A DNA stretch of 64,000 bases from Bdellovibrionales bacterium (GTDB taxonomy: Bacteria > Bdellovibrionota > Bdellovibrionia > Bdellovibrionales > UBA1609): assembly GCA_965243065.1 (NCBI GenBank), contig CBDETO010000005.1:987520-1051519 (forward strand). Direction: 5' to 3'. The notes under the pieces were generated by a model, which was given only the letters and a program-made list of their open reading frames with translations, had not been told where the DNA came from and made no database searches. The translations under genes and the position numbers were made by a program. Below, piece by piece: positions 9,024 to 53,222 of the stretch (positions within the stretch are counted from its first letter, which is position 1; each line of letters starts with the position of its first letter).

Positions 9024-9409
9024 ATTTTTATTTACCTTTAAAATGTTTCATTGTTTAATAAGCTGCACTTGGTTTTTCCCTCATCATCTTCTTTTTCTCG
9101 AAAATATATAAATGCGAAAAGGAAAAAGCCCCTACAGAACCTTATTTTGAATTTATGTGCTTTATTACATAACTGAACCAGAGAGGCTATCATTGATTTT
9201 TTTTAATGTCTATAATTTTACAGGAAAAATTTCCTTTGGAGGGTTTTCCTTAAAAAAAGCTTTAGTATGCGTAGCATTATTGTTTTTATTAAAAAAAACA
9301 CAATATTTTCAATACTTTACATTTTTGTGCTTTAGAAATTTGAAACCGCTGATTCTTTAGATAAAATAGCCCATACGATTGAAGAGGCCACTTTTTTAGC
9401 GCGACTCAC

Positions 9410-12010
9410 TTATAATGCTTCTTTTAAAAAGGGAGCGGTGACACTCTTATTAGATCGAGCCATTTTTTCCGGTGTTCCTTCGGCCACGACTTTACCTCCG
9501 TGCCTTCCTCCGCCAGGACCTAAGTCAATAACATAATCACAGGATTTAATCACATCCATTTGATGTTCTATAACAATCACAGTGCTGCCTTTTTCAGTTA
9601 ATTTTTTTAACACAAAAACCAGTTGTTCAATATCCTTAAAATGTAAGCCCGTGGTGGGTTCATCTAAAATGTAAAGCGTCCGGCCTGTGTTCTTTTTAGC
9701 TAGCTCACGGGTCAGCTTGATCCTTTGTGCTTCTCCTCCAGAAAGAGTCATAGAGTTTTGACCTAAAGTCAGATATCCCAGTCCCACCTGCTCTAAAAGC
9801 TGTAATTGTTGCTGAATCAGAAAATGATGAGCAAAAAACAACTTAGCACCAATAATATCCATACTTAAAATATCGTGTATATTCTTGTTCTTATACAAAA
9901 TACTTAATATTTCATTTGAATAACGCTGTCCCTGACAAATATCACAAGTTAAAATGGCAGAAGGTAAAAAAAGCATTTCTTGCTTAATCTGCCCTGTCCC
10001 GGAACATTTTTCACAACGTCCCCCTTTAATATTAAAACTGAAATCACCAGGAGTATAACCCCGAACACGGGCTGCAGGAACTTGAGACATTAAAGCCCGA
10101 ATAGGAGACATAATACCCACATAAGTGGCCGGAACGGAACGAGGTGTCCTTCCTATAGGTTTTTGATTTATGGCTATGGCTTTGTTTAAAAACTCCAAAC
10201 CTTTTATCTCACTATAGGGGTGGGGTTTAGCAAAAGACACCTGGTTTAAATGTTGCAAAATAGCTTTATAAAGAGTGTCTATAACTAAAGTGCTTTTTCC
10301 GCTACCTGAAACTCCGGTAACACCCACTAAACAGGATAAAGGTATTTTCACATTTATATTTTTTAAGTTATTTCCCCTGGCTCCTTTTATTTCTAGTGTG
10401 TTTCCTTTATGAGGGTTTCTTTTCGTTGGCAGGAATATCTTTTTTTTACCAGATAAGTAATGTCCTGTAATAGATTGAGGTGATTTTATAATATCTTGCA
10501 GAGAACCTTCTGCTATAATATGCCCTCCCTTTTTTCCCGCTACAGGCCCCAGGTCAATAAGATGCTCAGCGGAGCGAATGGTTTTTTCATCATGCTCCAC
10601 CATAAGCACTGTGTTCCCTCTATCTCTTATATGAAATAAGATTTTTAAAAGACGATCGTGATCTTGAGGGTGCAGGCCAATACTAGGTTCATCCAGCACA
10701 TACAATACACCTATTAAGGGAGAAGAGATTTGAGACATCAATCGAACTCTTTGTGCTTCTCCTCCAGAAAGGGTGCGAATAGGCCGATCCAAACTCAAGT
10801 ACCCCAAACCCATTTTTTTTAAAAAACTCAAATCCAACTTTATTTTCTCCAAAATTTTATCGGCTACAAGCTTATATTGAGATGGAAATTTTAGGCGAGA
10901 GCAAAATGGGATTAGTTTTTCTATGCTAAAAGAGGAGAGTTGAGCGATATTTTTATCTTGTATTCTTACATTTAAAGCAAAAGGTTTAAGTCGTGTGCCC
11001 TTACATAAGGGACATGTTTTGACAGCTATACCAGTCTGGTTTGTGTATTCATGGTTTTTTTTCTCAAAGTCGGAAAACACCAAATTTTCCTCATTAATAT
11101 CTTCTTCCATCCACTCGCTTTCTTCTCCCCATTCCTCTTCTTCCTGCAGGTATCCTAATCCATTACATTTTAAACAAGCTCCTTTTGGATTATTAAAGCT
11201 AAATAATTTTGGTTCTATTTCTGGAAAGCCAGCTAAACAGACCGGGCAGGTGGCATGAAGGGAGTAGTGTTTTGTACCCATTTGGCTGGAATCTAAGCAT
11301 TCAATTTTAATTCTCCCGTTTGTTAGGTCAGCAGCTTTTTGCAGGCTTTCCTTTAACCGAAGGTTCAGTCGTGGCTCCACATTCAACCGGTCCACCAGCA
11401 GATCAATAAAATGATCTTTTCTCTTGGAAAGTTTTTCAGCTTCAGCCAGTTCTAACCATTTTCCATCCACTTTTGCTCGAGTGTAACCTGAGGATAAAAA
11501 ACCTTGAAATTCTTTTATGAACTCCCCTTTTTTTCCTTCAGCTACAGGAGCCAGAACAAAAAAGCGGCTTTTTTTTGGCCATGTCATTATTTCTCTTGTA
11601 ATGTCGTCAATAGAGCTTTTTTTTAAAGCCTGCTGATGTTGTATGCAATAAGGTGTTCCCAACCTGGCAAACAACAATCGAAGATAGTCATAAATTTCTG
11701 TCACTGTTCCTACAGTAGAACGAGGGCTGGTGTTAATAGACTTTTGATCAATAGCCACGGCAGGAGATAAACCTGTAATGGCATCCAGATCCGGTTTTTT
11801 TATTTGAGATATAAAAAAGCGGGCATAAGAAGATAAACTTTCCACATACCGACGCTGTCCCTCTGCATAAACCGTATCAAATACAAGAGAGGACTTTCCA
11901 CTTCCACTGAGTCCCGTCACAATAGTTATTTTGTTACGAGGGATAAAAGTATTTATGGATTTAAGATTATGTTCCCTGGCTCCATAAATATAAATACCTT
12001 CTTGTTTCAA
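9410..12010 (-). CDS. uvrA: excinuclease ABC subunit A (short form, 866 aa)
   Basis: YGAREHNLKSI, two Walker A sites (GLSGSGKSS and GVSGSGKST), two LSGGEAQR signatures, and zinc-module cysteines. Confidence 0.9.
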   Translation of the reverse strand: MKQEGIYIYGAREHNLKSINTFIPRNKITIVTGLSGSGKSSLVFDTVYAEGQRRYVESLSSYARFFISQIKKPDLDAITGLSPAVAIDQKSINTSPRSTVGTVTEIYDYLRLLFARLGTPYCIQHQQALKKSSIDDITREIMTWPKKSRFFVLAPVAEGKKGEFIKEFQGFLSSGYTRAKVDGKWLELAEAEKLSKRKDHFIDLLVDRLNVEPRLNLRLKESLQKAADLTNGRIKIECLDSSQMGTKHYSLHATCPVCLAGFPEIEPKLFSFNNPKGACLKCNGLGYLQEEEEWGEESEWMEEDINEENLVFSDFEKKNHEYTNQTGIAVKTCPLCKGTRLKPFALNVRIQDKNIAQLSSFSIEKLIPFCSRLKFPSQYKLVADKILEKIKLDLSFLKKMGLGYLSLDRPIRTLSGGEAQRVRLMSQISSPLIGVLYVLDEPSIGLHPQDHDRLLKILFHIRDRGNTVLMVEHDEKTIRSAEHLIDLGPVAGKKGGHIIAEGSLQDIIKSPQSITGHYLSGKKKIFLPTKRNPHKGNTLEIKGARGNNLKNINVKIPLSCLVGVTGVSGSGKSTLVIDTLYKAILQHLNQVSFAKPHPYSEIKGLEFLNKAIAINQKPIGRTPRSVPATYVGIMSPIRALMSQVPAARVRGYTPGDFSFNIKGGRCEKCSGTGQIKQEMLFLPSAILTCDICQGQRYSNEILSILYKNKNIHDILSMDIIGAKLFFAHHFLIQQQLQLLEQVGLGYLTLGQNSMTLSGGEAQRIKLTRELAKKNTGRTLYILDEPTTGLHFKDIEQLVFVLKKLTEKGSTVIVIEHQMDVIKSCDYVIDLGPGGGRHGGKVVAEGTPEKMARSNKSVTAPFLKEAL

Positions 12011-27474: not shown

Positions 27475-30400
27475 TTAACAAGAAGAATTTTGCAATTGAG
27501 TTATCTTCTTATTAATATCTTCTATTTTTTGCTTCGTATCTTCTACATCATATAAAATAATTTGCTTATTATCAGAAGAATCAATGTTATCCCAATATTT
27601 TATCATATATTGAATACCAAGAGGTTCAAAAGCACCTTTACCTGATTTTAAATCAACAGAAGTAGTACCACTTGGACAGCTTTCAGTTAATTTGCGTAAT
27701 GAATAGGGTAACTTATTTTTTACACATAGGCGATAATACTTTCCCATATCTATTAGGCTATGTGATACCTTACAATAATAAGGGCTTTCTCCAAGAACAC
27801 TCCCACTAGAGCATCCCCCCCAACCATTATACCGACGACAACGTCTGGTGCTCGTTATACTATTTATATCAGGTAGATTAAGAGAACCAACCACACCCTT
27901 TGTAGTCATATATGTACCTGCTGTACGAACAGCATTTCTAGCCTCACTTCTTTTGGATTTTAAAAATATAGATCCCATTGGCCAAGGCCGACTTAGTCGT
28001 AAATTCTTAACAAAAGGAGGATTTTCTTGTGCTGCAGTGCCATTCTCATACCTATGCCTTAAAGCCACCCAGGCCATAGGATTTGCCACCGTTTTTTGAT
28101 ATAAAAAAGAGTTGGGAGGCATATCACTGTCAGAAACTCCTGGATTTGGATAAGGGTACTGGTCATCATTGCTGTTTAAAGCCAGCATGGCCTTAACCCA
28201 ATCCATACTGGACTCAGGAGGTACAAAACGACCTCCATACATATTACATTTTTCAACCCCCTCTGTGGCTTTACCTTTCGTATTACTTATAAAAAAATGA
28301 TCTTTATTTGAACCGGATTTTTTCTGACATACAAAGGGCAGCTCCTCACTAGCCGGTTGTGGTGAAAGTCCCTTCCACCGAATATTATGAGACAAAGCCA
28401 TATATTGCTCATCACTAAAACTCTCACTGTCGTCTCTCAACAAAATAGGAGAATGGGCATTGGCTTTACTAAAATAAAGAGAAAAAGGCGCGTCTTTAGC
28501 CACCAAGGCCCAAGGAGGAGAAGCTACCACTGCGCCACCGGCATCCCACTCCATAGCAGTCCATAATTTATATCCCGCTCTCCTTGCCACCTCACTACTG
28601 ATAAAAGCCTTTATCACTTCCTCAATACTAGTAGGTAAAATAGACAAATTAAGGGGAGGAGGAGCTAAAAACAAGCCTCTGCTAACATTATTAATGAAAT
28701 TGAATTTTAAATTACTGGGGTTTTCCAGAGTAAAACTAGATGTGTTATCTCCCGGTAAAGCGGTCACTGCCGATATGGCCTTCTGAGCTGAATTCCCATT
28801 ATCATTTGGTTGATAAGTATTAAAAAGTAGAATAGCTAAATCATAATATCGCCCCTTTTCCCTGCCCATTTCAAAGCAAATCTTCTGAGCGTCTCGAAAT
28901 GGAGCCGTAATCCATTGTAAAGGCTGCGTGGTATTATTTGAAAGCCTCATCGCCGGATAATAATGTCCATTCACAAAACAAAGAACAGGTAATTTGCTGG
29001 TACACTTTACTGCCTCATACTGAGTGTCACGAAAATCCTTAAAAGAGTCTAAACTATTAAAATTCTTTACAGCTATACCTTTACATCCATTATCTCCCGG
29101 ATCATATAAGGCTCCCTGATTAGCAGCTGTAGAAGGTAAATTCCTTATATATCTATATTTGTCTTTAATGGAACATTCAGGAACTTGACCATCTAAAGGT
29201 TCATCGGCCAAGCCATATATAAACTGTTGGCTTCCTTGTTGATTTTGTGTAGTCACTATAGATTTTTCCGTATTGTAAGGACCGAAGGTCCCCAGTCCAT
29301 AACGATGACAGGCTTTCATGTGACATACAGTACAGCGCACCCGATTACTTACATCATTGCCATTACTTACATCACTGCTATAATCCTTTTCAAAAATCAT
29401 TCCATTCTTTTTGTCTTCGTGAATATTTATAACCGGATATACATAACTGGCTTCTTCCGTGGGCTTGTAAGTTTTACATATTTCCTGGCAAACAGGTGCT
29501 ATATCAGTCATAACCTCAAAACTACTGGCCCCCCTTGGTATGTTGAATTTTATATTATTCTTATTTCCTTCTATCCGCTTCCCTTTATTACTACTGTGAT
29601 ATAAGGAAAGTGTGCCGGATTCCAATACTCCGTCATCTGTACCATCTAGCTCTGAATTCCCTTTTTTTAAAGTTACATTAATAGCTTTGATGGGTAGGCT
29701 GCGAGGTTTGTAATTTATAACATTAAATGTAAATTGGAGATCATCGTAGTCAGCACTGTCATTTAATAACTCTTGTCTGCACTTGAATTTATTCTTTACA
29801 CAGCTGACTTTTGTATTTAAGCCAGATAAAGCAAATAAATCAAAGTTCTCCACCCTGCCAGCTTGGACAATATCTTCATTGATATTCAATATTTCTAGCT
29901 TACGAGAATGGCCACTAAATATAGGGCTGTTAAACACATTTCTGTTGAATGTGGTTCCAGGTCCTGTACCTGAAAATTTGACAATGGTTTTTTTACCGTC
30001 CACCGCCGTTATATTGCACTCACCTATCTCGTTAGCCCACACAATATCCGATGAGGAACTTTTATAAGTAGTCAATCCCTCATCCAACATACCTTCCCTC
30101 ATCAATTCAGTTCTCAGATAAAAAACCACTCTTTTAGAGTCTATAAGACTACCCCTTTGTTGATGGATATCAATAGAGTTAAATTGAGGAAAAACTTTTG
30201 GAATAATTTGAGCTATAGCATAAATAACCATACCGGCCGTCTCTTCACTGCCTCGATATACAAGACATCGGCTTAAATTGTTATTAGAAAAAGAAGCATT
30301 TATTTTTCTGCATTTTTCTTTTGCCGCATTCCCTGATAAAAGCTCCCATTCCGACTTTGAAAAAAAATACTTCCAACGGCTTTTATTCCAACTGCTTTTA

Positions 30401-30810
30401 TCTTGCATTTTAAATAAATTGAGATCCACTTGTTCTATTCCATAAAAATCTGCCGGTGGTTTAACAAGAGAACAAATACCATAAGTATTTACCTTATTCT
30501 TCGTCTTGGGAGTTTCTCCGTTTTCATCCAGGTTTTTTTCTATTAACAGAGACTTCATCCCATTAATAATCCTGGCTTTCAAAATGGGCTTATAGTGCAC
30601 TTGCTCGACAGTACTTTGGCTGGTTTTCCTAACATTACTGGTATAATGCACTAAGCCTGTTCCACTGATGACCAGTAAAGAAAAAGCCACAAGACTCCCC
30701 ATGACCGAAAAACCTTTAGTAGAAAAAAAGAGAGAAGTTTCAGAAGCTCTCTTCCTTTTAGAGAACATAAAGAAACAACCGGAAAATCTAAACATTCTTT
30801 TTTTTGCCAT
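27475..30810 (-). CDS. very large minor-pilin-like / pilus-associated surface protein (1111 aa)
   Basis: N-terminus STKG|FSVMGSLVAFSLLVISGTGL is a prepilin-like hydrophobic helix lacking Glu5 (GspK/PilX-like). The remainder is Cys-rich with no domain I can name. It is the last gene of the 35764->27475 cluster. Confidence 0.5.
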   Translation of the reverse strand: MAKKRMFRFSGCFFMFSKRKRASETSLFFSTKGFSVMGSLVAFSLLVISGTGLVHYTSNVRKTSQSTVEQVHYKPILKARIINGMKSLLIEKNLDENGETPKTKNKVNTYGICSLVKPPADFYGIEQVDLNLFKMQDKSSWNKSRWKYFFSKSEWELLSGNAAKEKCRKINASFSNNNLSRCLVYRGSEETAGMVIYAIAQIIPKVFPQFNSIDIHQQRGSLIDSKRVVFYLRTELMREGMLDEGLTTYKSSSSDIVWANEIGECNITAVDGKKTIVKFSGTGPGTTFNRNVFNSPIFSGHSRKLEILNINEDIVQAGRVENFDLFALSGLNTKVSCVKNKFKCRQELLNDSADYDDLQFTFNVINYKPRSLPIKAINVTLKKGNSELDGTDDGVLESGTLSLYHSSNKGKRIEGNKNNIKFNIPRGASSFEVMTDIAPVCQEICKTYKPTEEASYVYPVINIHEDKKNGMIFEKDYSSDVSNGNDVSNRVRCTVCHMKACHRYGLGTFGPYNTEKSIVTTQNQQGSQQFIYGLADEPLDGQVPECSIKDKYRYIRNLPSTAANQGALYDPGDNGCKGIAVKNFNSLDSFKDFRDTQYEAVKCTSKLPVLCFVNGHYYPAMRLSNNTTQPLQWITAPFRDAQKICFEMGREKGRYYDLAILLFNTYQPNDNGNSAQKAISAVTALPGDNTSSFTLENPSNLKFNFINNVSRGLFLAPPPLNLSILPTSIEEVIKAFISSEVARRAGYKLWTAMEWDAGGAVVASPPWALVAKDAPFSLYFSKANAHSPILLRDDSESFSDEQYMALSHNIRWKGLSPQPASEELPFVCQKKSGSNKDHFFISNTKGKATEGVEKCNMYGGRFVPPESSMDWVKAMLALNSNDDQYPYPNPGVSDSDMPPNSFLYQKTVANPMAWVALRHRYENGTAAQENPPFVKNLRLSRPWPMGSIFLKSKRSEARNAVRTAGTYMTTKGVVGSLNLPDINSITSTRRCRRYNGWGGCSSGSVLGESPYYCKVSHSLIDMGKYYRLCVKNKLPYSLRKLTESCPSGTTSVDLKSGKGAFEPLGIQYMIKYWDNIDSSDNKQIILYDVEDTKQKIEDINKKITQLQNSSC

Positions 30811-30849: not shown

Positions 30850-32343
30850 TTAATGAGGGGGAATGTATCGCACTATAGTTGTAAGAAAATCAAAAGTTTT
30901 AACAGTAACAGTACTCTGTAATGTAACAGACTGTTCTACCTTTTTAGGGTAAAACACTCTCCTAGGCTCAATATGCGGGTATAAACAAACCCCACCTGAA
31001 CCACATGATGTATTAACTGAATATTGATTATTGCAAGAACCGGGTATTTGTTTTCTATTGCCAAAACTATCCGTACTGCGCTCCACACAAATCCCTATCG
31101 GTGTAAATAAAGACCCTACCCTGTAAGTAAGAGACATAAGGGGCTGGGCATGCACATTAATACTGCTGGAAGAAGTCGTACTGGTACTAGTAAAAGGGTT
31201 AACTCCCCGAAACTGTCCACGGGGAACTCGATTTAAGGGAAATGGAGAATTATTAATCTCTATAGTTGTAGTTTGACTTGTTATTTTATACCTTACTTTC
31301 TCCGTACAAGTAACTCTGTCCTGAACGATAAATGACTCTCCCGGGTGAACCACTTCTTTACCATCTCTTTCCAACAAATCATCAGTCACTTGGTAGAATT
31401 TAAGCGGATCTCCCTTTTTATCCTTTTCCACTATAGATGTCTGCTCTCTTAACAAAGATAAAGCATAAATGACACCAGGTCCGTTGTTGGTTAATTTCAT
31501 CTGTAGATTAGAATATTCCTTCCCAGAAGGAGGTACAAATTCCCCACGGCATTCAGGATACCTGTACCCGGTATCACTAGAGGCACAGGTCAACTCACAT
31601 TTTGCATTACTCTCCAATGCCATAGTGACATGAGATAAAGGTCTCCTGATACCGGCATGGTGAAATTCCTGTTTTTCTCCTTCCGATTTAACTGCAACCA
31701 AAACAATATAAAAATCCTGATCGGCCTCCTTAATATACTCACACACAGAGTTAGGTATAGGCGCGTTCGTACCCTCATCTACACACTTTTGTTGATTAGG
31801 AGGAGTGCACTTTCCAGGTATCATTTTCAATGTCTTTTTATGCCGACATACGGCTGTAGGTATCTCCCCAATAAGATTTTGAATATAAGAGTCCTTCCAA
31901 TTCACCAGATTAAATTGGATGGTGTAATTCAGAGGCTTCCCGCCATTTAAAGTGGGTTCATTTTTTATCTGACCTTCTATCGTTAAAATATCCTTCCCAG
32001 CTACTTTTGTTAATGCAGGTGAACTTAGGTTATAGTCCTGTAATCGAATAGTGCTGTCGTAGGTATTCCATTTACACAAAGCCGTCGTGTCTTTCCAACC
32101 TGTTTCTTTACATAAAACCAAATTATTGGCAACTAGATAACCTCCTAAAGTAAAACCATATTTAGCAGTAAGATGGCTTTCCCAATCTTCCTTATTTAAC
32201 TCTATGTTGGATAGAAACCAATTAATACTTTTTTGACTATGAAATATAGTAGATAACACGGCCCCGGATACCATCAAAGATAAAATAATAGCCGCACTTC
32301 CCGCTTTTTTTGAAAAATAATGAGTAGGTACAAAATTATCCAT
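30850..32343 (-). CDS. PilX-like minor pilin / pilus assembly protein (497 aa)
   Basis: N-terminus KKAGSAAIILSLMVSGAVLSTIF resembles the PilX N-terminal segment. Cys-rich extracellular part. Confidence 0.45.
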   Translation of the reverse strand: MDNFVPTHYFSKKAGSAAIILSLMVSGAVLSTIFHSQKSINWFLSNIELNKEDWESHLTAKYGFTLGGYLVANNLVLCKETGWKDTTALCKWNTYDSTIRLQDYNLSSPALTKVAGKDILTIEGQIKNEPTLNGGKPLNYTIQFNLVNWKDSYIQNLIGEIPTAVCRHKKTLKMIPGKCTPPNQQKCVDEGTNAPIPNSVCEYIKEADQDFYIVLVAVKSEGEKQEFHHAGIRRPLSHVTMALESNAKCELTCASSDTGYRYPECRGEFVPPSGKEYSNLQMKLTNNGPGVIYALSLLREQTSIVEKDKKGDPLKFYQVTDDLLERDGKEVVHPGESFIVQDRVTCTEKVRYKITSQTTTIEINNSPFPLNRVPRGQFRGVNPFTSTSTTSSSSINVHAQPLMSLTYRVGSLFTPIGICVERSTDSFGNRKQIPGSCNNQYSVNTSCGSGGVCLYPHIEPRRVFYPKKVEQSVTLQSTVTVKTFDFLTTIVRYIPPH

Positions 32344-32404: not shown

Positions 32405-32622
32405 AAATAAAATTAGTCACGAACATATTTTACAACATGACATTTCTACCATTACAAAGATTTTTTTTCGTTTTTCGATAAACCCCACTAAAAATCTCAT
32501 AATGATACAAAGTGCTGTAAAATAAATAGTCACTTTTCCCGAGTTCGACACAGAGCAATACATAGTGGTTTTATGCAAAAACTAAACACCTCTTTAGTAG
32601 CTCCCCATCCCATGAAAACATT

Positions 32623-32831
32623 GTCATCCCCGCGAAAGCGGGGACCTCTTATAGGTAAAGCCGGATAATATGCTATGTTATTTGTCATCCCCGCGAAAGC
32701 GGGGACCTCTTATAGGTAAAGCCGGATAATATGCTATGTTATTTGTCATCCCCGCGAAAGCGGGGACCTCTTGATCGCTTAAAGGAAGGTATTAATTTAA
32801 GAGTTGTCATCCCCGCGAAAGCGGGGACCTC
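32623..32831. repeat. 4-copy hairpin-repeat array with exact 61-nt period (CRISPR-like geometry, probably not CRISPR)
   Basis: GTCATCCCCGCGAAAGCGGGGACCTC starts at 32623, 32684, 32745 and 32806. The intervening ~33-35-nt segments 1 and 2 are identical and segment 3 is unrelated. Confidence 0.85.
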
Positions 32832-32881: not shown

Positions 32882-35764
32882 TTAATTTTTATTCTTCTCG
32901 ACTTTTTGTTGTGCCTCTTCTATATCCTTAAGCTTTATTTTTAATTGTGTGAGTTCTTTTTGTTGCGATGTAAGTGCTTCCTGCTGTGATGTAAGGATTT
33001 CTTGTTGTAAAAGAATAAGGGTGTTTAATTTCTTTATCTCCTCTTTCTCTTTGGCCCATGTCTTTTTTATTTCCTCTATTTCGTTTATAATAACTGTTAC
33101 CTTTTCTGTAAGTGTTTTTATTGCCGACGAGGTATTTTCTTTAATGGCTATTACCTCCTCTGTTACTTTTTTTAATGCTGACAAAGTGTTTTCTTTAAAA
33201 CCTTCAAATTTAATAATTAAAGCTTTTATAGCAGCCCAAAAGGTCCCGTAAATAGAAGGCATATCTGGCATAGAAGGCTGGCCTTTGTCTTTAATCTGAA
33301 GATAATGGGGCAATTCCTCGGAAATAAAACCCATACGACTTTTATTTGGGTGGTCCTCTTTGTACTCATAAGTAAATAAAGGGGTCTTTTTTATATCTTT
33401 ATAAACTCTCTCAAAGTTTTTAAATTTTTTAATGTTTTTCTTATACACCCGAGAGGAGGGAGTGCCATGACTGTGACCCGCAGGAGCGTAGCCACTATGA
33501 CCATGACCGGATGGAGAGTAAGGATGAGTATGAGCATCTAGGGCATGGTGACCATTATGATTATGACCAGGCATGGAAGGACAAGTAGAACCACCACAGC
33601 TAAATACCCCCGAGGTGAGATTAATACCCCCTTCCACCTCAAGTCCATCTGCATGCACCTTTAGTTTTTTTGCAACATCTAAAGTCCCATGAATCACAGC
33701 CCCAGGAGAAGAGGGAATGAAAGGATTGGAGGAGGGGGGGGCACTCGTATTTAACTTTCCTAAAATTAAGTTTCCGATATTCAGTTGGTTGGATCCTGTT
33801 TTGCTAATTCCCACATGGGATCCAGAATTAGGTGGCCCTACCTCACTCCCTATATATATGTTTTCATTACCTGAAGTATTATATATACCTGCTTGAAATC
33901 CCAAGAAGGTATTTTTATCTCCCGTGCAGTTCACAGACCAAGCCTGTCTTTCTGCTTCACCGCCAGGGTCAACCCAAAGATATGTAAATGGAGTGGAAGG
34001 TATGCATATCCCAGCATTACCTCCTAAAAACACATTTTGTTTTCCTGTCCCATAAAATGCCCCCGAGTGAAATCCTACAAAAGTATTTTCACCCGCTTTA
34101 TTAAAATACCCCGATCCTCCACCTACATAAAGATTATGAATAGATGTTTCATTATATTTTCCTGTTGCAGCTCCTAAGAAAGTATTCTGTGATCCTGTTA
34201 TATTCGACCTACCCGCATCCATCCCTAAAAAGGTATTCCAACGAGCTGTATTTGAGTTTTGACCCGCTCGTGCCCCTATATAGGTATTACCCACGCCAGT
34301 TGCATTAAGTCTTCCTGCCTTGTGACCTATAAAAACATTGTGAGAAGCTTCAAAAATACTACTGGTTGTGTCATCTTCTGTGGTGTATTTACCCGCTTCG
34401 TGCCCCACAAAGACATTGTTCCGCGCAGTTGTAGCACTAAAACCTGCATAACGACCTATATAGACATTTTCATCCCCTGTAGTATTAGAGTGGCCTACAG
34501 CAGCACCTATAAAGATGTTACTTTTACCGGTGGTATTAAAATAACCTGCATTACTACCCAAAAAAACATTGCTACTACCCAAAGTATTGGCATAGCCTGC
34601 TTGATAACCTACAAAAGTGTCGTTACTACCCAAAGTATTAGAATAACCCGTATGATAACCCATAAAAACATTAAATGCTCCTTTCTGATTAACAACTGTA
34701 CCTGGTATAGTATTAATCCCCGACTCAAATCCAAAGGCCGTCACCGTGCTGACAGGTATCTTTGAGGTGCCCCCACAACCTATTAAAGCTCTTCCTTTGC
34801 CCAATTCTGAACCAGGAGAAATTAAACGTTCAACACTATCAGGGTGTACATTCTGAGTTATAGAAGGCCCATCAAAATCCACCGTATAACAAGAGATATT
34901 GTCCCCACCTACGCAATTTAAAGTATCACAGGCTACGACATCCGGGTTACTCGCCACATTCTCCAACCTATAATCCAGATCACATTCCAAAAAGTAACAC
35001 CCGCTCGTATCACTGCTGGTACAATCACCCCCATCTAATGTGTTTAAATCCTTTGTCTGCTTCTTGCTGTAATACACCACAAATTTTCTATTTACTGTAG
35101 CTGTCTTAGGGTTCTGAGTTGCATCACCTGTAAGTTCTAGCTTTACAATATCCAAGTTCCCCTTAAAAGACTTCCCCTCCTCCAGCAAGGCCACACCATC
35201 TTGCTCCAACTTACTAATCGTGCCTATCCCCTTTTGACTGTTACTCCCTGTAAGTCTGCCCGCTTCCGGCTTTAAATTAGCCTTACAGTAATTATCATTT
35301 GTAAGAATGTTATTTACGGCTATTCGTAACTCCTGCTCAGAAAAAGTCCCTCTTACCACCTGAGAAGACTGCATAGATACCGTGGCTAATTGCAGGGTCC
35401 CCACAGTAATCACCGCCATTAAACCTATGACTACCAGAATCTCCAATAAGGAAAATCCACCTTTGTTGCAAAGCTGGCCCAGAGAAAACAAAGATGGCTT
35501 CCCGTTTCCGCAGTCTATCCAGGAAAACAATTTCCAAGGAAACAAGCTTGATACTGGATCAGATGGATTCCCGCTTCCGCGGGAATTGCACCTGCTCACT
35601 TTCGTAAGGACTAGCCTCGAGGGGAGCTTTGTCCCCGCTTCCACTTTCGAAAGCTTTGCGGAAAATAACCGGATGAATATACCTGAAGTTAGTTCTCTGA
35701 ATGAATGAATGAATGAATGAATGAATGAATGAATGATTTTTTCACACTTCTTACTTCCCTGCAA
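32882..35764 (-). CDS. type IV pilin-like N-terminus fused to tail-fibre-like repeats, HxH cluster, S74-type intramolecular chaperone domain and coiled coil
   Basis: NKGG|FSLLEILVVIGLMAVITVG prepilin motif at codons ~100-125. G/N/T-rich 13-16-aa repeats. GHNHNGHHALDAHTHPYSPSGHGHSGYAPAGHSHG. SSRVYKKNIKKF...LFTYEYK...RMGFISEELP. Start ambiguous: TTG 35764 (longest ORF) or TTG 35491 (GGGAAG 6 nt upstream, 12-aa leader). Confidence 0.7.
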   Translation of the reverse strand: MQGSKKCEKIIHSFIHSFIHSFRELTSGIFIRLFSAKLSKVEAGTKLPSRLVLTKVSRCNSRGSGNPSDPVSSLFPWKLFSWIDCGNGKPSLFSLGQLCNKGGFSLLEILVVIGLMAVITVGTLQLATVSMQSSQVVRGTFSEQELRIAVNNILTNDNYCKANLKPEAGRLTGSNSQKGIGTISKLEQDGVALLEEGKSFKGNLDIVKLELTGDATQNPKTATVNRKFVVYYSKKQTKDLNTLDGGDCTSSDTSGCYFLECDLDYRLENVASNPDVVACDTLNCVGGDNISCYTVDFDGPSITQNVHPDSVERLISPGSELGKGRALIGCGGTSKIPVSTVTAFGFESGINTIPGTVVNQKGAFNVFMGYHTGYSNTLGSNDTFVGYQAGYANTLGSSNVFLGSNAGYFNTTGKSNIFIGAAVGHSNTTGDENVYIGRYAGFSATTARNNVFVGHEAGKYTTEDDTTSSIFEASHNVFIGHKAGRLNATGVGNTYIGARAGQNSNTARWNTFLGMDAGRSNITGSQNTFLGAATGKYNETSIHNLYVGGGSGYFNKAGENTFVGFHSGAFYGTGKQNVFLGGNAGICIPSTPFTYLWVDPGGEAERQAWSVNCTGDKNTFLGFQAGIYNTSGNENIYIGSEVGPPNSGSHVGISKTGSNQLNIGNLILGKLNTSAPPSSNPFIPSSPGAVIHGTLDVAKKLKVHADGLEVEGGINLTSGVFSCGGSTCPSMPGHNHNGHHALDAHTHPYSPSGHGHSGYAPAGHSHGTPSSRVYKKNIKKFKNFERVYKDIKKTPLFTYEYKEDHPNKSRMGFISEELPHYLQIKDKGQPSMPDMPSIYGTFWAAIKALIIKFEGFKENTLSALKKVTEEVIAIKENTSSAIKTLTEKVTVIINEIEEIKKTWAKEKEEIKKLNTLILLQQEILTSQQEALTSQQKELTQLKIKLKDIEEAQQKVEKNKN
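35495..35655. repeat. cluster of hairpin repeat units inside the 5' leader of the pilin-fibre ORF
   Basis: GGATTCCCGCTTCCGCGGGAATTGCA (35565-35590), GTCCCCGCTTCCACTTTCGAAAGC, GGCTTCCCGTTTCCGC. Confidence 0.65.
35698..35736. repeat. tetranucleotide simple-sequence tract (TGAA)9+TGA; (ATTC)9 on the coding strand
   Basis: Counted directly. Translated in the track ORF as IHSFIHSFIHSF. Confidence 0.95.
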
Positions 35765-35953
35765 GAGTTTTTTTCTTTCCCGTATTAGAAATTATATCAG
35801 ATAAATCTTTAAAAAATCAAATTTTTTATTTTTCATGTCCCATGTAGGAAAAAATCTCAAAAAAACTCCCCCCTTACCCGGCTTATACAAGTCAGGAATC
35901 CCCATTCCCCTCTTTCATGGACTAAAATCTTGCTAGTTAAGGAACCATCTTTC

Positions 35954-46624: not shown

Positions 46625-47800
46625 TTAATGAGCGGGAGAATCACCGTACCCGACAGGAGCACCACAAAATATAGGTTTTCCATTATAAGTTTTAGAGTGG
46701 CTGTGACCCTTATCCCCGGTCGCCGGTCCACAGTTTATAGTACGGTGCTGACATTTACTGCCAGTAAAATAAGGACCTATCGGTGTGCCTTTTTCTACCT
46801 GACATGTGCAAGTTTTCTGCCATTTATGAGTATGTAATCCTCCAACATTTTCTCCTTCACCACAGAACCGATGACTACCCAAGTTCTCTCTCGTGAAAGT
46901 GTGTGTTATATATTCTTTTTTTGGTTGTGGTCGTCTTGGTGGTCTTGGTTTGTAAATGATGGATCCCGTAGTTGATCCGCTACTGGACCCCGTAGTTGAG
47001 CTAGATGTACTAGGTAGTGATACTACTGTACCTGATCCCGCCGGTCCCCTAGGCCCTGGGGGCCCTGGAGGTACCGGATGACATGTTTTAATACCACTAC
47101 TATTAAATCCTCCTAAATACTGTCCTGATGGACAAATCTGCGAACCAATAAGAGTGGATCTGTTTAAGCAGATCTTATTACCATTACTATCAAAGCCTTT
47201 TAAGTATTCATTAGTTGCACACTCCCCTAAATCCTGACAGATTTTATTCCCATTACTATCAAATCCCTTTAAGTACTTGCCTGATCCACAACTAATACCT
47301 GCTATATGATTCTCCCCCAATCCTGCACAATTTTGCACATCACATACCTCTACATTCGGACTGGCATTGTTCTCTAACTTATACTTCAAACTACATCCCT
47401 GAAAATAACAACCCTCTACATTAGAACTGTTACAGGGCTTATCCTCCATTGTCCCCACTCCCTTCTTCTTGTAATAAACTATAAAATCCCTAATCACTGT
47501 ACTGGTCTTGGGATTACCTGTACCACTACCCGTAAAATCCATCTTCACTACCTCTAAAGTATTTTTAAAACCACCCACCTTTACTAAAGTGGTATCCTCT
47601 ACATTCGGGTCACCTAAACCCTGTATGAGCGTGCTTACTGTACCTTTACCATTGGTGGCACTTATACCCCCACTGCTGGGTTTGAGATTAGCCTTACACG
47701 GAATAGTATTGGTTAATACTTTACTTATAGACCATATAAGGGACTGCTCGGCTGAGGAGGCTTGAATGGTTTTAGAGGAATGAAGAGAAACAGCAATCAT
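46625..47800 (-). CDS. pilin-like modular surface protein, paralogue of 32882..35764; its prepilin leader lies upstream (to ~47950) and lacks an in-frame start codon
   Basis: The track ORF starts at an internal Met. The same frame upstream reads LKRNKG|LSIIEALAAAFIGGVVLAGTGK. The next ~150 aa align with the 960-aa paralogue (CKANLKP, NPKT.TV.R.F.VYY.KK, GCYF..C.L.Y.LEN). The C-terminus has Cys-rich YLKGFDSNGNKIC repeats, GPPGPRGPAGSG, an S/T-rich linker and HxH motifs. Confidence 0.7.
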   Translation of the reverse strand: MIAVSLHSSKTIQASSAEQSLIWSISKVLTNTIPCKANLKPSSGGISATNGKGTVSTLIQGLGDPNVEDTTLVKVGGFKNTLEVVKMDFTGSGTGNPKTSTVIRDFIVYYKKKGVGTMEDKPCNSSNVEGCYFQGCSLKYKLENNASPNVEVCDVQNCAGLGENHIAGISCGSGKYLKGFDSNGNKICQDLGECATNEYLKGFDSNGNKICLNRSTLIGSQICPSGQYLGGFNSSGIKTCHPVPPGPPGPRGPAGSGTVVSLPSTSSSTTGSSSGSTTGSIIYKPRPPRRPQPKKEYITHTFTRENLGSHRFCGEGENVGGLHTHKWQKTCTCQVEKGTPIGPYFTGSKCQHRTINCGPATGDKGHSHSKTYNGKPIFCGAPVGYGDSPAH

Positions 47801-47952
47801 TTTCCCTGTTCCCGCTAAGACAACTCCTCCTATAAAAGCCGCTGCTAAAGCCTCTATAATAGATAAACCTTTATTGCGTTTAAGAGGATTATACCGGTTC
47901 GGTTTAAGAACACGCTGAGACTTGACTTTTATCTCATTTTGAGACGAAAATG

Positions 47953-48193
47953 TGATTGGTGATTGGTGATTGGTGATTGGTGATTGGTGATTGGTGATTG
48001 GTGATTGGTGATTGGTGATTGGTGATTGGTGATTGGTGATTGGTGATTGGTGATTGGTGATTGGTGATTGGTGATTGGTGATTGGTGATTGGTGATTGGT
48101 GATTGGTGATTGGTGATTGGTGATTGGTGATTGGTGATTGGTGATTGGTGATTGGTGATTGGTGATTGGTGATTGGTGATTGGTGATTGGTGA
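47953..48193. repeat. heptanucleotide simple-sequence tract, 34 perfect copies of TGATTGG (CCAATCA on the coding strand) plus a partial copy
   Basis: Counted: 47953..48190 = 238 nt = 34 x 7. The two track ORFs 47929..48246 and 47934..48206 are just (ITNHQSP)n translations of it. Confidence 0.97.
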
Positions 48194-48327
48194 CTATAAT
48201 ATACATTCATATCTGTAATCTCCTTATCGAAAAAGTTACTTAACAATCCCTGAAAAATGGCTCTTATTCAAAATTTCCCCAACAAGAGGGAAAAATGAGT
48301 TAGGCCCTTGAGAGCACAATGCGACTA

Positions 48328-48518: not shown

Positions 48519-48594
48519 TGGTTCCCGTTCCCCATTTTCACGGGGACAAGCTTGACACAGGAGCAACTAGATTCCCGTTTTCACGGGAATGACA
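48519..48594. repeat. two hairpin repeat units
   Basis: GGTTCCCGTTCCCCATTTTCACGGGGACAAGC and GATTCCCGTTTTCACGGGAATGACA. Confidence 0.7.
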
Positions 48595-50239: not shown

Positions 50240-51490
50240 TCACCAATTCATCACAATAGGAATTTTATTTTTTTCACACACTTGTTCTAACTCCCGTTTA
50301 TTCTTTCGGTCCTCGGCTAATACAAGCAAACAGCCGCCCCCACCTGCCCCACAGAGTTTGACCTCTTTAGCACCATGACTCCTCATTAAATCAATAAGAG
50401 AAGATACAGAAGGGTTCAACCAATTGGAAAAATACTTGCCTCTTAATGCTTGTTCTTTGTTCAAACAAATAAATAAATCAGACCAATTTTCCTGACGGCA
50501 AATTTCCAAGGTCTTTAAAGCGTTGTCTCTAAGTTGATAGATACCATTTAAAATATCCTGATCTTTTTCAATAATTTTTTTTAATATCTCCCAATTATTA
50601 TTCCCAGAGTGATGGCTGTGCCCCGTATCTACTAATAGAAAATGATCTTTAAAAAAAGCGATAGGAATTTTTTTTCTACTCCATTTAGGGCCGGAAGAAA
50701 TACATTCAATAACATAAAGAAAATCCGGTTCTTCCTCTATAGCAGGAACATAATCCTGAACCCCCGCAGGAGCATGCAGCAAAGAAGTTTCTAAATCCCG
50801 ACATAGCATCAATAATTCATTTTTCGTTAGCTCTTTTTTCAATACAGAAGAAAGTACTTTCGCCAAGCCCACACAGAGGCTGGAACTGGCACCCAACCCG
50901 CCCCCTACGGGAGACTCTGACCTTAGAGAAATACTTTTTAGAAAAACCTGCTCCTTTGGCATATACCTACTCCAATATTCCAGATGTGTTTTTAATAATC
51001 TGAGTTCATCTGAAGAGTCTTTTAATAGATTATTTAAGCTTGTAAAAGAGTTTTTATAAGACCCAGAGGGGGAAAAAATACTCACATCTATTTTTGCTTT
51101 ATCAAAATGACGAGCCTCCCTAACATGAGAAACTCCCCGGGAAGAGTTGTCATCCCTTTGAAAATAAGTGTCCAGAATTAGTTTTTCTGGATTCCCGCTT
51201 TCGCGGGAATGACATTTTTCGCGGGACGGGAAGCCACCAAAGTGGCTTCCCGCTTCGTGGGATGGAAAGGCAACAACTTGCCTTTCTGTTTGAGCAGAAA
51301 TAACATCATTTTCTGTTTGAACAGAAGTAAAAACAGGAATAGAAAAGTTAAGCACAACACAATCGGGCACAAGAGCATACACAGGCCAAATATCCAACAA
51401 GCCTCCAGCCAAATCCACTCTTGTTGGACTTTTTACACTATACTTATACATTTTGTGTTCATCCATAATTAGCACCATTATAAAAATCAT
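50240..51490 (-). CDS. GHMP-family sugar kinase carrying an in-frame hairpin-repeat insertion
   Basis: PTRVDLAGGLLDIWP (motif I), SPVGGGLGASSSLCVG (motif II), LCGAGGGGCLLVLA (motif III). Start uncertain (Met codons at 51490, 51478, 51466, 51451). Confidence 0.7.
   Translation of the reverse strand: MIFIMVLIMDEHKMYKYSVKSPTRVDLAGGLLDIWPVYALVPDCVVLNFSIPVFTSVQTENDVISAQTERQVVAFPSHEAGSHFGGFPSREKCHSRESGNPEKLILDTYFQRDDNSSRGVSHVREARHFDKAKIDVSIFSPSGSYKNSFTSLNNLLKDSSDELRLLKTHLEYWSRYMPKEQVFLKSISLRSESPVGGGLGASSSLCVGLAKVLSSVLKKELTKNELLMLCRDLETSLLHAPAGVQDYVPAIEEEPDFLYVIECISSGPKWSRKKIPIAFFKDHFLLVDTGHSHHSGNNNWEILKKIIEKDQDILNGIYQLRDNALKTLEICRQENWSDLFICLNKEQALRGKYFSNWLNPSVSSLIDLMRSHGAKEVKLCGAGGGGCLLVLAEDRKNKRELEQVCEKNKIPIVMNW
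51189..51286. repeat. modular hairpin repeat (units A-B-C) inside the GHMP kinase ORF
   Basis: GGATTCCCGCTTTCGCGGGAATGACATTTTTCGCGGGACGGGAAGCCACCAAAGTGGCTTCCCGC..., near-identical to 63548..63620. Translated as AFPSHEAGSHFGGFPSREKCHSRESGNPEK. Confidence 0.85.
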
Positions 51491-51625
51491 TTGCTATTTA
51501 AACCTATATCCCTTTAATATATAAATATATGAAATTTTTTACAATTTACTTTATGGTTTCTTTATTTGCTTCGCCTCACTATGTATATCGAATCGGTACA
51601 GATTCCCGCTTTCGCGGGAGTGACA
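51471..51625 (+). repeat. 155-nt direct repeat, copy 1 (promoter plus first ~30 codons of the 53126 gene)
   Basis: Near-identical to 53064..53222, apart from a 4-nt TA-repeat indel and a few substitutions. Encodes a truncated MKFFTIYFMVSLFASPHYVYR... ORF starting at 51531. Its distal part carries the hairpin-repeat units at about 51585-51647. Confidence 0.85.
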
Positions 51626-51727: not shown

Positions 51728-52885
51728 ATGAAAAAGGTCAGATTTTTTTGTTTTTTATCTTTATTAACTGTGTTTCCCGGTCTCTGTTATTCTGCCAAGA
51801 AAAAGTCTTCAGTTTGCAAAACAATGTTTGCAAATGAGGGGGAGAACTTTGAAGACTTGTTTCCGTTCAAGAACTTTGTTCAGCTTATGGTAGATCTTAA
51901 AATTTATTCCACCCTAGATTTGGTTAAAGCAAAAAGAGACGGGGATTTTCCTGAAGAGGTTCCTGATAAACCTCTACAGACTTATCCTGAACTAGAAGGA
52001 AAATGGAGTTTGCTATGGGATACAGTGCATGCTCTTCATTTATCTCAAAGGGAAGATGTAGCTAAGCGGAGAAAATGGACGACGAGTGAGGTTCGAGCCT
52101 TTATAAAAGAAGTCTTGAAGACAGAAAGTCGGCGTAACAGCCAAATAAATAAAGTAGGGGAGCATGTTCCAGAGAGGCAGAAAAAAATCGGGAGAAAAGC
52201 CTTGTCTAGCCACGTGCCGGCAGCCCTGATAGCTCATAATGAAAGACTGAGAAAAAACCAGGAAGAAGTGCTTTCTTTAATAGCCAAGAATCCTCAAATA
52301 AAGGTAGAGGAGTTGGCAGAGCAGATGCAAATACCAAAGAGACCCACAGAGCAGATAATTTCTAAGTTAAAAGAAGGAGGCCATCTGGTGAGAGTGGGAA
52401 GGACTAGTAAATATGGATACTGGGAGGTTTTTAAAGAAGGAGAGAAAGTGTCTGCTTCTGTTGTCAGCCTGCAAAGCGAGCGGGAGAGTAAAATGCTTTC
52501 TTTAATAGCCAAGAATCCTCAAATGAAGGTAGGAGAGTTGGCAGAGCAGATGCAATTATCAAATAGACTCACAGATGAGATAATCTCTAAGTTGAAAGAA
52601 GGAGGCCATCTGGTGAGAGTGGGAGGGAGCAGTAAATATGGATACTGGGAGGTTTTTAAAGAAGGAGAGAAAGTGTCTGCTTCTGTTGTTAGCCTGCAAA
52701 GCGAGCGGGAGAGTAAAATGCTTTCTTTAATAGCCAAGAATCCTCAAATGAAGGTAGGGGAGTTGGCAGAGAAGATGCAAATATCAGAGAGATCCGCAAG
52801 GGGGATAATCTCTAAGTTGAAAAAAGAAGGCCGGCTGGTGAGAGTGGGAGGGAGCAGTAAATATGGATACTGGGAGGTACTTTAG
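51728..52885 (+). CDS. signal-peptide protein with three tandem winged-helix (HTH) DNA-binding-like modules
   Basis: MKKVRFFCFLSLLTVFPGLCYSA signal-like N-terminus. Three copies of LSLIAKNPQMKVGELAEQMQ.S.R....IISKLKEGGHLVRVGGSSKYGYWEV. Confidence 0.6.
   Translation: MKKVRFFCFLSLLTVFPGLCYSAKKKSSVCKTMFANEGENFEDLFPFKNFVQLMVDLKIYSTLDLVKAKRDGDFPEEVPDKPLQTYPELEGKWSLLWDTVHALHLSQREDVAKRRKWTTSEVRAFIKEVLKTESRRNSQINKVGEHVPERQKKIGRKALSSHVPAALIAHNERLRKNQEEVLSLIAKNPQIKVEELAEQMQIPKRPTEQIISKLKEGGHLVRVGRTSKYGYWEVFKEGEKVSASVVSLQSERESKMLSLIAKNPQMKVGELAEQMQLSNRLTDEIISKLKEGGHLVRVGGSSKYGYWEVFKEGEKVSASVVSLQSERESKMLSLIAKNPQMKVGELAEKMQISERSARGIISKLKKEGRLVRVGGSSKYGYWEVL
52268..52885 (+). repeat. 225-bp tandem repeat, 2.7 copies, within the CDS
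   Basis: CTTTCTTTAATAGCCAAGAATCCTCAAAT starts at 52271, 52496 and 52721, an exact 225-nt spacing. Confidence 0.9.
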
Positions 52886-53063: not shown

Positions 53064-53222
53064 AGCACCATTATAAAAATTATTTGCTATTTAAGCCTAT
53101 ATCCCTTTAATATATATATAAATATATGAAATTTTTTACAATTTACTTTATGGTTTCTTTATTTGCTTCGCCTCACTATGTATATCGAACCGGTACAGAT
53201 TCCCGCTTTCGCGGGAGTGACA
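53064..53222 (+). repeat. direct repeat, copy 2 (159 nt)
   Basis: See 51471..51625. This copy is joined to the full-length ORF 53126..53776 and runs into the hairpin-repeat units at about 53183-53258. Confidence 0.85.

Follow-up and report, generated by a model that had tools for sequence, protein, structure and literature searches.

The gene described here lies on the minus strand of a contig of a Bdellovibrionales bacterium (CBDETO010000005.1). The whole stretch that was analysed, 64 kb at positions 987,520 to 1,051,519 of that contig, is called the window, and coordinates are counted from its first nucleotide. The gene, hereafter the fibre gene, occupies 32882-35764 and joins a type IV pilin-like N-terminus to a phage-like fibre in one chain. 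In order, the encoded protein consists of a prepilin motif, a long helix and a Cys-rich beta head, a solenoid shaft, a cluster of HxH motifs, an S74-type chaperone domain and a long helix at the C-terminus. A reading made from the letters and open reading frames without database searches (the sequence-only reading) had proposed this frame and five features within it; the frame is as proposed, and all five features are found in its 960 codons. Residues are numbered in the 869-amino-acid form that starts at TTG 35491. The gene and its parts are as follows.

32882..35764, minus strand: longest open reading frame of the fibre gene, with 960 codons counted from TTG 35764 and the stop codon at 32882-32884
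35300..35464, minus strand: class III (prepilin) signal KGG/FSLLE (the slash marks the predicted cleavage point) and hydrophobic alpha-1 helix, residues 10-64
34877..35299, minus strand: Cys-rich beta-sheet head with conserved Cys, residues 65-205, modelled by AlphaFold2 with a predicted local distance difference test score (pLDDT) of 82-94
34772..34876, minus strand: variable low-confidence linker, residues 206-240, pLDDT below 50 over 208-232
33812..34771, minus strand: predicted beta-solenoid shaft of about 17 turns, repeat NxFxGxxAGxxNTTGxx, residues 241-560
33572..33811, minus strand: conserved QLNIGNLILGKL segment and distal region, residues 561-640, low AlphaFold2 confidence
33458..33571, minus strand: HxH cluster HNH, HTH, HGH, HSH with a spacing of about 10 residues, residues 641-678
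33254..33457, minus strand: core of a Peptidase_S74-type intramolecular chaperone with the Ser-x4-Lys pair S679/K684, residues 679-746
32885..33253, minus strand: C-terminal long helix or coiled coil, residues 747-869, with weak coiled-coil matches in the PDB

The prepilin motif reads NKGG/FSLLEILVVIGLMAVITVGTLQ (also given as NKGG/FSLLEILVVIGLMAVITVG), and its cleavage region starts G/FSLLEILVV. The residue pattern of a class III signal is complete, with Gly at -1, Phe at +1, Glu at +5 and then about 20 hydrophobic residues. In the alignment of the N-terminal module (N-module), which comprises the signal, the helix and the Cys-rich head, G12 and E17 are invariant and Phe is the consensus residue at +1. 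The motif claimed from the sequence alone is thus present as NKGG/FSLLE; its hidden Markov model (HMM) match falls below the cutoff in the fibre protein and above it in relatives. Pfam N_methyl matches 9 of 14 full-length homologues, with a best E-value of 1.8e-6; the relatives P0136, P0132 and P0139 pass the Pfam threshold, and P0005, P0016 and P0132 pass that of NCBIfam TIGR02532. When the family profile was compared with the PDB, type IV pilins were matched over alpha-1 (Geobacter pilin 7tgg, E=6e-5). In the AlphaFold2 model, residues 12-64 form a helix, and a beta sheet of about nine strands then extends to about residue 205 (pLDDT 82-94); the order of helix and sheet is that of a pilin. 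The approximately seven conserved Cys of the module are in keeping with an exported protein that has disulfide bonds. When the N-module by itself was used in an exhaustive HMM search, 251 cluster representatives came up at E<1e-10, against only two proteins in a word-indexed search.

Behind the linker, the repeats that the sequence-only reading had noticed do exist, but their period is 17 residues and not the 13-16 it had given: over residues ~250-560 the self-identity is 0.28 at a lag of 17 against a background of ~0.06. AlphaFold2 models the shaft as a single-chain beta-solenoid with pLDDT 82-94 over residues 270-490. The shaft matches virion and tail-spike families in PHROG (phrog_6002, 3e-23; phrog_4636, annotated as 'tail spike', 6e-15), and ten viral predicted structures in BFVD are matched at E<=1e-3.

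The cluster at the distal end holds four strict HxH motifs (residues 643, 654, 663 and 673) and one HH, in agreement with the four to five proposed earlier, and the last HxH stands three residues ahead of the predicted cleavage site. In the long tail fibre tip of phage T4, gp37, repeated HxH motifs occur in the metal-binding needle of a trimeric fibre. The fibre protein resembles gp37 in having HxH repeats at the distal fibre end, a likeness of motif alone that is shared by 8 of 68 S74-bearing relatives. In these eight, HxH lies within the 60 residues N-terminal of the catalytic Ser; over the remainder of the proteins the motif occurs at 0.006 per 60 amino acids, so that the enrichment before the Ser is about hundred-fold. 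The cluster looks like one exchangeable tip type among several and not like a trait of the family, as judged from this distribution, and by analogy with gp37 it may bind metal.

The S74 domain follows, C-terminal of the beta-helical region (solenoid 250-560, tip, S74 679-746). Its catalytic motif is S679-S-R-V-Y-K684, with Ser in place of Asp at the second position, and both S679 and K684 are invariant among 43 sequences. Peptidase_S74 matches 12 of 14 full-length homologues (best 7.5e-15). The chaperone domain proposed by the sequence-only reading is supported by the Ser/Lys pair and by this Pfam match, which is below the cutoff in the fibre protein and is passed by relatives. Profile matches of the S74 block in the PDB are marginal and are limited to tail-fibre chains and MyRF (8hqz, 1.5e-3; 8jov, 1.6e-3; MyRF 7dc3, 0.2; 6f45, 0.27). 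In BFVD, the matches include phage proteins with an 'intramolecular chaperone auto-processing' domain (2.5e-3 to 5e-3). By analogy with the Bdellovibrio fibre Bd3182, described below, self-cleavage is predicted between P678 and S679. The C-terminal coiled coil was also recognised correctly, since AlphaFold2 gives one long helix over residues 747-868.

The relatives show how these parts are combined. A search with the whole protein gave 1892 matches, mostly through the repeats; 13 of the homologues are full-length and have every part in common with the fibre protein. In a census of cargos among 258 proteins fetched from the N-module HMM search, 45 have the N-module, the repeats and S74, and 37 have the N-module and the repeats; another 89 have the N-module without repeats or detectable S74, some of them with other cargo and others possibly fragments. 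In one such protein, P0200 (1053 amino acids, on a 3.0 Mb ENA contig), the N-module precedes a coiled coil and a Peptidase_S8 subtilase domain in the same chain. The window itself contains another gene of this kind.

46625..48246, minus strand: second N-module gene, motif NKG/LSIIEAL, 40% identical over fibre residues 12-215

The body of this second gene spans about 46625-47893, and its cargo is Cys/His-rich, unlike the fibre: it combines three C..G.YLKGFDSNGNKIC repeats with a collagen-like PGPPGPRGPAG, a stretch rich in S/T and a tail rich in Cys/His. Because it occurs on other cargos and in the second gene of the window, the N-module behaves as a reusable carrier. The closest relative, P0001, is 98-100% identical to the fibre protein in the N-module and 95% in S74; identity falls to 31% in the linker and to 47% in the shaft, where P0001 bears an internal duplication of about 150 amino acids. 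This pattern suggests cassette exchange or fast diversification of the shaft between close relatives. Proteins with the shaft and S74 and no pilin module are found in other phyla, some with a type IX secretion sorting domain; thus the fibre cassette seems, from such arrangements, to have been combined with lineage-specific export modules. In a search of a species-representative genome collection, all 27 loci lie in metagenome-assembled genomes (MAGs) labelled 'Bdellovibrionales bacterium', 1.4-2.2 Mb in size, and a single genome has as many as six paralogs. The connection that had been drawn from the sequence to fibre adhesins of predatory bacteria is therefore apt, every genomic relative being in a Bdellovibrionales MAG.

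In B. bacteriovorus such adhesins are represented by 21 mosaic adhesive trimer (MAT) fibres, and S74 is present in 13 of these (Caulton et al., 2024; PMC10769870). At its N-terminus a MAT fibre has a Sec signal, which is followed by a conserved, beta-rich N-domain of about 130 amino acids whose surface partner is not known, and a possible interplay with type IV pili was raised by the same authors (PMC10769870). The S74 domain of Bd3182 trimerises and then cleaves at the conserved Ser, with S782A as the control (PMC10769870). The present family is like the S74 subgroup of MAT fibres, such as Bd3182, in that its members are cell-encoded, multi-paralog, phage-like fibres of Bdellovibrionales with a Ser-x4-Lys S74 domain and mosaic exchange, and also in having a conserved N-terminal module that is thought to be at the predator surface. 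It is unlike them, by their published description, in its prepilin-type signal, long alpha-1 helix and Cys-rich head, and further in the 17-residue-repeat solenoid, predicted as a single chain, and in the 120-residue helix after the S74 core. The beta head of the fibre protein might or might not be related to the MAT N-domain.

The sequence-only reading knew of no description of a pilin joined to S74. In fact, the pair was listed by Raynaud et al. (2021; PMC8179133), who found IPR012902-IPR030392 (pilin and S74) in 29 InterPro proteins, and in 7 more with a YadA-head domain, and read the combination only as 'peptidase', without analysis. The combination is thus catalogued but uncharacterised. 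Compared with modular pilins such as PilB and PilC of S. sanguinis, the fibre protein has the same succession of pilin module, linker and grafted functional module; it differs from the tabulated modular pilins in that its cargo is predicted to be an obligate-trimer fibre, part of which, the S74 domain, would be discarded after folding. The sequence-only reading had also seen a need to reconcile a trimeric fibre with a monomeric pilin helix. A precedent for this exists in CofB (CFA/III of enterotoxigenic Escherichia coli) and TcpB (the pilus TCP of Vibrio cholerae), homotrimeric minor pilins that are tip-located or predicted to be so (PMC8179133). Both consist of a pilin module, a flexible linker and C-terminal beta domains (PMC8179133). 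Unlike the fibre protein, they are of type IVb and have no S74, no solenoid shaft and no detectable sequence relation to it, and the trimer of the fibre protein is predicted by analogy. From phage fibres and spikes, such as K1F endosialidase and the T5 L-shaped tail fibre, comes the other half of the resemblance: a beta-helical shaft followed by S74 with its Ser/Lys pair. The fibre protein differs from these in having a pilin module in place of the N-terminus for virion attachment, in its chromosomal gene outside any prophage and in its long coiled-coil tail.

On balance we lean, with some reserve, towards reading the fibre gene as a modular minor type IV pilin that carries a phage-like, trimeric fibre as cargo at the pilus tip. 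The fibre is probably a variant of the Bdellovibrio MAT fibres, and the cell would mount a phage-style fibre on a pilus. The class III signal would insert the protein into the inner membrane with the remainder in the periplasm, and prepilin peptidase would remove the leader after the Gly. The S74 domain and the long coiled coil at the C-terminus would gather three chains. From that end, the distal tip would fold and the three solenoids of 17-residue repeats would pack laterally. The S74 domain would then cut itself off at the bond between P678 and S679, by means of S679 and K684, and expose the HxH-rich tip, which may bind metal ions on the three-fold axis. The three pilin modules, on flexible linkers, would seed or cap a type IV filament; an axial offset of the three pilin subunits at the filament tip could be taken up by the variable linker (residues 206-240). 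The fibre would be shown at the pilus tip, as with the homotrimeric CofB and TcpB, and there it would recognise prey or host cells or attach to them, as the MAT fibres do in B. bacteriovorus. Each of these steps rests on established behaviour of class III signals, S74 domains or trimeric tip pilins.

Several results weigh against this pilus-tip model. In the fibre protein itself, the matches to Pfam N_methyl (PF07963, E=8e-4, 19.3 bits against a cutoff of 21.2), to NCBIfam TIGR02532 (15.9 against 16.3) and to Pfam Peptidase_S74 (PF13884, E=7e-4, 20.3 bits against 22) all stay short of their thresholds, and Glu +5 is missing, with Gly instead, in a subgroup of paralogs. In a Foldseek search against the PDB, the N-module had no significant neighbour (best E=0.3), which leaves topology as the support for its pilin fold, and the model of the whole protein gave nothing significant; proof of a pilin or S74 fold by this route was dropped, with the viral predicted-structure library alone giving matches. 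By sequence, the S74 block has no detectable match to the PDB chain of Bd3182. The tip region with the HxH cluster (residues 583-687) has pLDDT below 50. Because the solenoid is confidently predicted as one chain, the case for trimerisation of the shaft depends on the S74 domain. Finally, no prepilin peptidase, pilus ATPase, platform protein or secretin, and no machinery of a type II secretion system (T2SS), is encoded among the 43 open reading frames of at least 150 amino acids in the 64-kb window; no pilus machinery was seen beside the homologues examined, and a tblastn search for PilT-like proteins on all fetched loci was negative.

One could suppose that the pilin-like N-terminus serves only as an export signal and inner-membrane anchor, as in a pseudopilin-type, T2SS-like substrate or a signal-anchor protein, and that the fibre is released or otherwise attached to the envelope. 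The lack of pilus genes nearby and the paralogs without Glu +5 favour this supposition, as do weak NCBIfam matches of the protein, which are to minor pseudopilins (GspJ, XpsH, ComGE, prepilin-peptidase-dependent proteins), and the subtilase cargo of P0200 suits secretion as well as display. However, the N-module is more than a signal, with a conserved helix of 50 residues and a Cys-rich head of 130 residues, and its near identity to that of P0001 (98-100%), while the shaft stands at 47%, argues for a structural docking role; trimeric modular pilins at the tip are, moreover, an established solution. An export-only role is for us a fairly unlikely account. It appears improbable that the hydrophobic N-terminus resembles a prepilin motif by chance and acts as a plain Sec signal or uncleaved anchor of a MAT-type fibre unrelated to pili: the sub-threshold HMM scores, the missing Foldseek match to a pilin and the Sec signal and beta-rich N-domain of B. 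bacteriovorus MAT fibres would agree with it, but G at -1 and E at +5 are invariant or nearly so, F at +1 is the consensus, several relatives pass curated pilin thresholds, and the helix, at about 50 residues as in pilins, is far longer than a Sec signal.

The phage character of the shaft and of S74 brings up a remnant tail-fibre gene of a degraded prophage with no cellular role. The shaft does match phage virion and tail-spike families and viral predicted structures, and the S74 block matches phage fibres in the PDB. Against this origin stand the neighbours, which are housekeeping or hypothetical genes with no phage genes among them, and an intact frame of 869-960 codons, a conserved non-phage N-module, at least 45 proteins built in the same way and as many as six paralogs in one small genome, all of which speak for a maintained cellular family. 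A prophage origin was rejected on genomic context, and we give it hardly any weight.

Upstream of the pilin motif, the fibre gene and several relatives carry simple sequence repeats (SSRs) whose unit is not a triplet.

35698..35736, minus strand: perfect (CATT) x9.75, in frame between TTG 35764 and the pilin motif of the fibre gene, candidate slipped-strand switch
47952-48193, minus strand: perfect (CACCAAT) x34.6, upstream of the pilin frame of the second N-module gene
Loci L009 and L016: (CAAC)26 and (CAAC)34, upstream of the pilin motif
Loci L022, L024, L027 and L028: C14 to C22, upstream of the pilin motif

The tracts of L009, L016, L022, L024, L026, L027 and L028 lie about 80-170 nt upstream of the pilin motif (near positions 9400-10020 of the loci), between an ATG and the motif. 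Of the 26 long non-triplet SSRs in 0.65 Mb, 8 fall within 400 nt upstream of a pilin motif of the family, an interval that makes up 1.5% of the sequence (P=4e-9). In several of the genes the interval from the repeat to the motif lacks a start codon, and translation must therefore start upstream and read through the repeat. The upstream ATG is in frame in L016, L022 and L024 and out of frame in L009, L027, L028 and the second gene of the window, and the in-frame L016 and the out-of-frame L009 share one genome. In the second gene, two upstream start codons are out of the pilin frame and no start follows the (CACCAAT)34.6 repeat; the addition or loss of one CACCAAT unit would put one or the other upstream ATG in the pilin frame. 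From its sequence, this gene looks like the OFF state of a slipped-strand switch. Part of the pilin-module family is thus probably phase-variable through its leader repeats. Switching of the fibre gene at 32882-35764 itself is uncertain: its repeat is in frame with TTG 35764, and a start at TTG 35491 is possible.

Contingency loci of this kind are known in pathogens, for example the pentamer repeats in the signal-peptide coding region of Neisseria opa genes and the tetranucleotide repeats of Haemophilus. The leader repeats resemble them in being long, perfect and non-triplet, in lying between the start codon and the mature surface protein, and in the presence of paralogs in and out of frame. 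They differ from the opa and Haemophilus loci in that they sit in a prepilin leader of unusual length, which would be removed, and in their Bdellovibrionales hosts. A wider proposal, that uncultured Bdellovibrionales with small genomes keep a repertoire of pilus-tip, trimeric, phage-like fibres and other cargos, whose members are switched by repeat slippage in a long disposable leader, is possible but doubtful in our judgement. An exact-flank scan of metagenome contigs for repeat-length alleles found none, a protein-based scan gave only three distant loci, and a literature search found no report of such repeat switching in Bdellovibrio.

Arrays of a different kind occur farther upstream in genome OZ251448.1, where all six paralogs (L004, L006, L007, L008, L017 and L018) are preceded by arrays of 8-nt units, GTTACATC/GTTACAGC, of 6 to 86 copies at a distance of 0.75-1.8 kb (for example, L006 8155-8842 and L018 8652-9259). 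The array of L007 begins right after a promoter-like site, TTGACA-17-TATATT.

Bdellovibrio fibres that resemble phage tail fibres have been shown to recognise prey, and how they are held on the predator is not known (PMC10769870). The pilin-module family offers a direct link of such fibres to pili, because here the fibre carries its own pilin module. If this is true, it would also explain how MAT-type fibres are anchored to the cell, and it would extend the idea of modular pilins to a trimerising cargo with a throw-away chaperone. The leader repeats suggest that a predator can stochastically vary the fibres it displays, as pathogens do with adhesins; if so, predatory bacteria would have a system of contingency loci that governs prey or host range. 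The significance of these proposals rests on what is inferred from sequence, and the earlier database listing of the domain pair limits their novelty.

The remaining features in and around the fibre gene concern its starts, its transcription and a mobile palindrome.

35791..35820, minus strand: best sigma-70-like promoter of the region, TTGATT, 18-nt spacer, TG-TATAAT
35489..35491, minus strand: alternative TTG start, 12-residue leader MFSLGQLCNKGG, with a Shine-Dalgarno-like GGGAAG 7 nt upstream
35567..35586, minus strand: palindrome TTCCCGCGGAAGCGGGAAT resembling repetitive extragenic palindromic (REP) elements, within the leader region of the fibre gene
33734..33741, minus strand: C8 homopolymer on the coding strand (G8 on the plus strand), codon 584
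32621..32831, minus strand: REP-like array of 3.5 units of 61 nt, directly 3' of the stop codon of the fibre gene
35567-35586, 48571-48590, 51191-51210, 51602-51620, 53199-53217 and 63550-63569: copies of the REP-like palindrome in the window

Of the two candidate starts, TTG 35764 would give a leader of 103 amino acids and TTG 35491 one of 12 amino acids. The position of TTG 35491 is near that of the ATG of the ortholog L005, which has a 16-amino-acid leader. The 91 codons between both starts contain no stop, for which the base composition gives a probability of about 0.002, and the promoter-like site, with 10 of 12 matches to the consensus (a consensus match only) and an extended -10, lies about 25 nt upstream of TTG 35764. 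According to gene calls, leaders across the pilin-module family have a median length of 16 residues and reach 40 or more in 15 of 85. An Rfam scan of about 270 nt upstream of the pilin motif gave nothing at gathering thresholds and only chance-level matches in E-value mode, and the idea of a riboswitch or another known RNA in this region was rejected. The G8 run noted earlier at 33734-33741 is present and corresponds to the C8 run of codon 584; a slip by one nucleotide in either direction would truncate the fibre protein at residue 598 or 617, before the tip. Each 61-nt unit of the array behind the gene bears a GC-rich hairpin, GGTCCCCGCTTTCGCGGGGATGAC, and the four REP-like hairpins behind the stop codon make it probable that the fibre gene is transcribed on its own.

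The REP-like palindrome (TTCCCGCGAAAGCGGGAAT and variants) is present in six copies in the window, where none is expected by chance, and it is similar to palindromic elements that occur in frame, for example in Rickettsia. Its occurrence upstream of many paralogs raised the idea of a specific regulatory site, which was rejected because it is also found elsewhere, including a GHMP-kinase-like open reading frame; it was treated as a generic mobile palindrome. The copy in that frame (50240-51490) is read in frame as the peptide ...CHSRESGNPE..., and some homologues have insertions of related peptides (VIPAKAGIQ, RHPRENGEPES) in their leaders and S74 loops.

The window is otherwise ordinary chromosome, with rpoA, rplQ, uvrA, der, rnc, secG and fusA among its genes and no phage genes. 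Downstream of the fibre gene, on the minus strand, are genes for proteins of 497 amino acids (30850-32343) and 1111 amino acids (27475-30810). Neither protein has a match in Pfam, NCBIfam or PHROG or a homologue beside other family members, and without family matches or conserved adjacency the two genes were rejected as conserved partners of the fibre gene. The 1111-amino-acid protein has a pilin-like N-terminus, STKG/FSVMGSLVAFSLLVISG, without Glu at +5, and the N-terminus of the 497-amino-acid protein is hydrophobic. Two further genes of the window contain internal repeats. The rpoA frame (6534-8066, minus strand) encodes 510 amino acids, of which the RpoA domains end near residue 319; its C-terminal extension contains a 39-nt repeat in 2.8 copies at 6800-6915, with a G10 run per copy on the plus strand. 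The frame at 51728-52885 (385 amino acids) contains a 225-nt unit in 2.7 copies at 52269-52878, with 91% identity, encoding repeated winged-helix (HTH_24/MarR-like) modules, and the protein begins with a hydrophobic N-terminus like that of a signal peptide.

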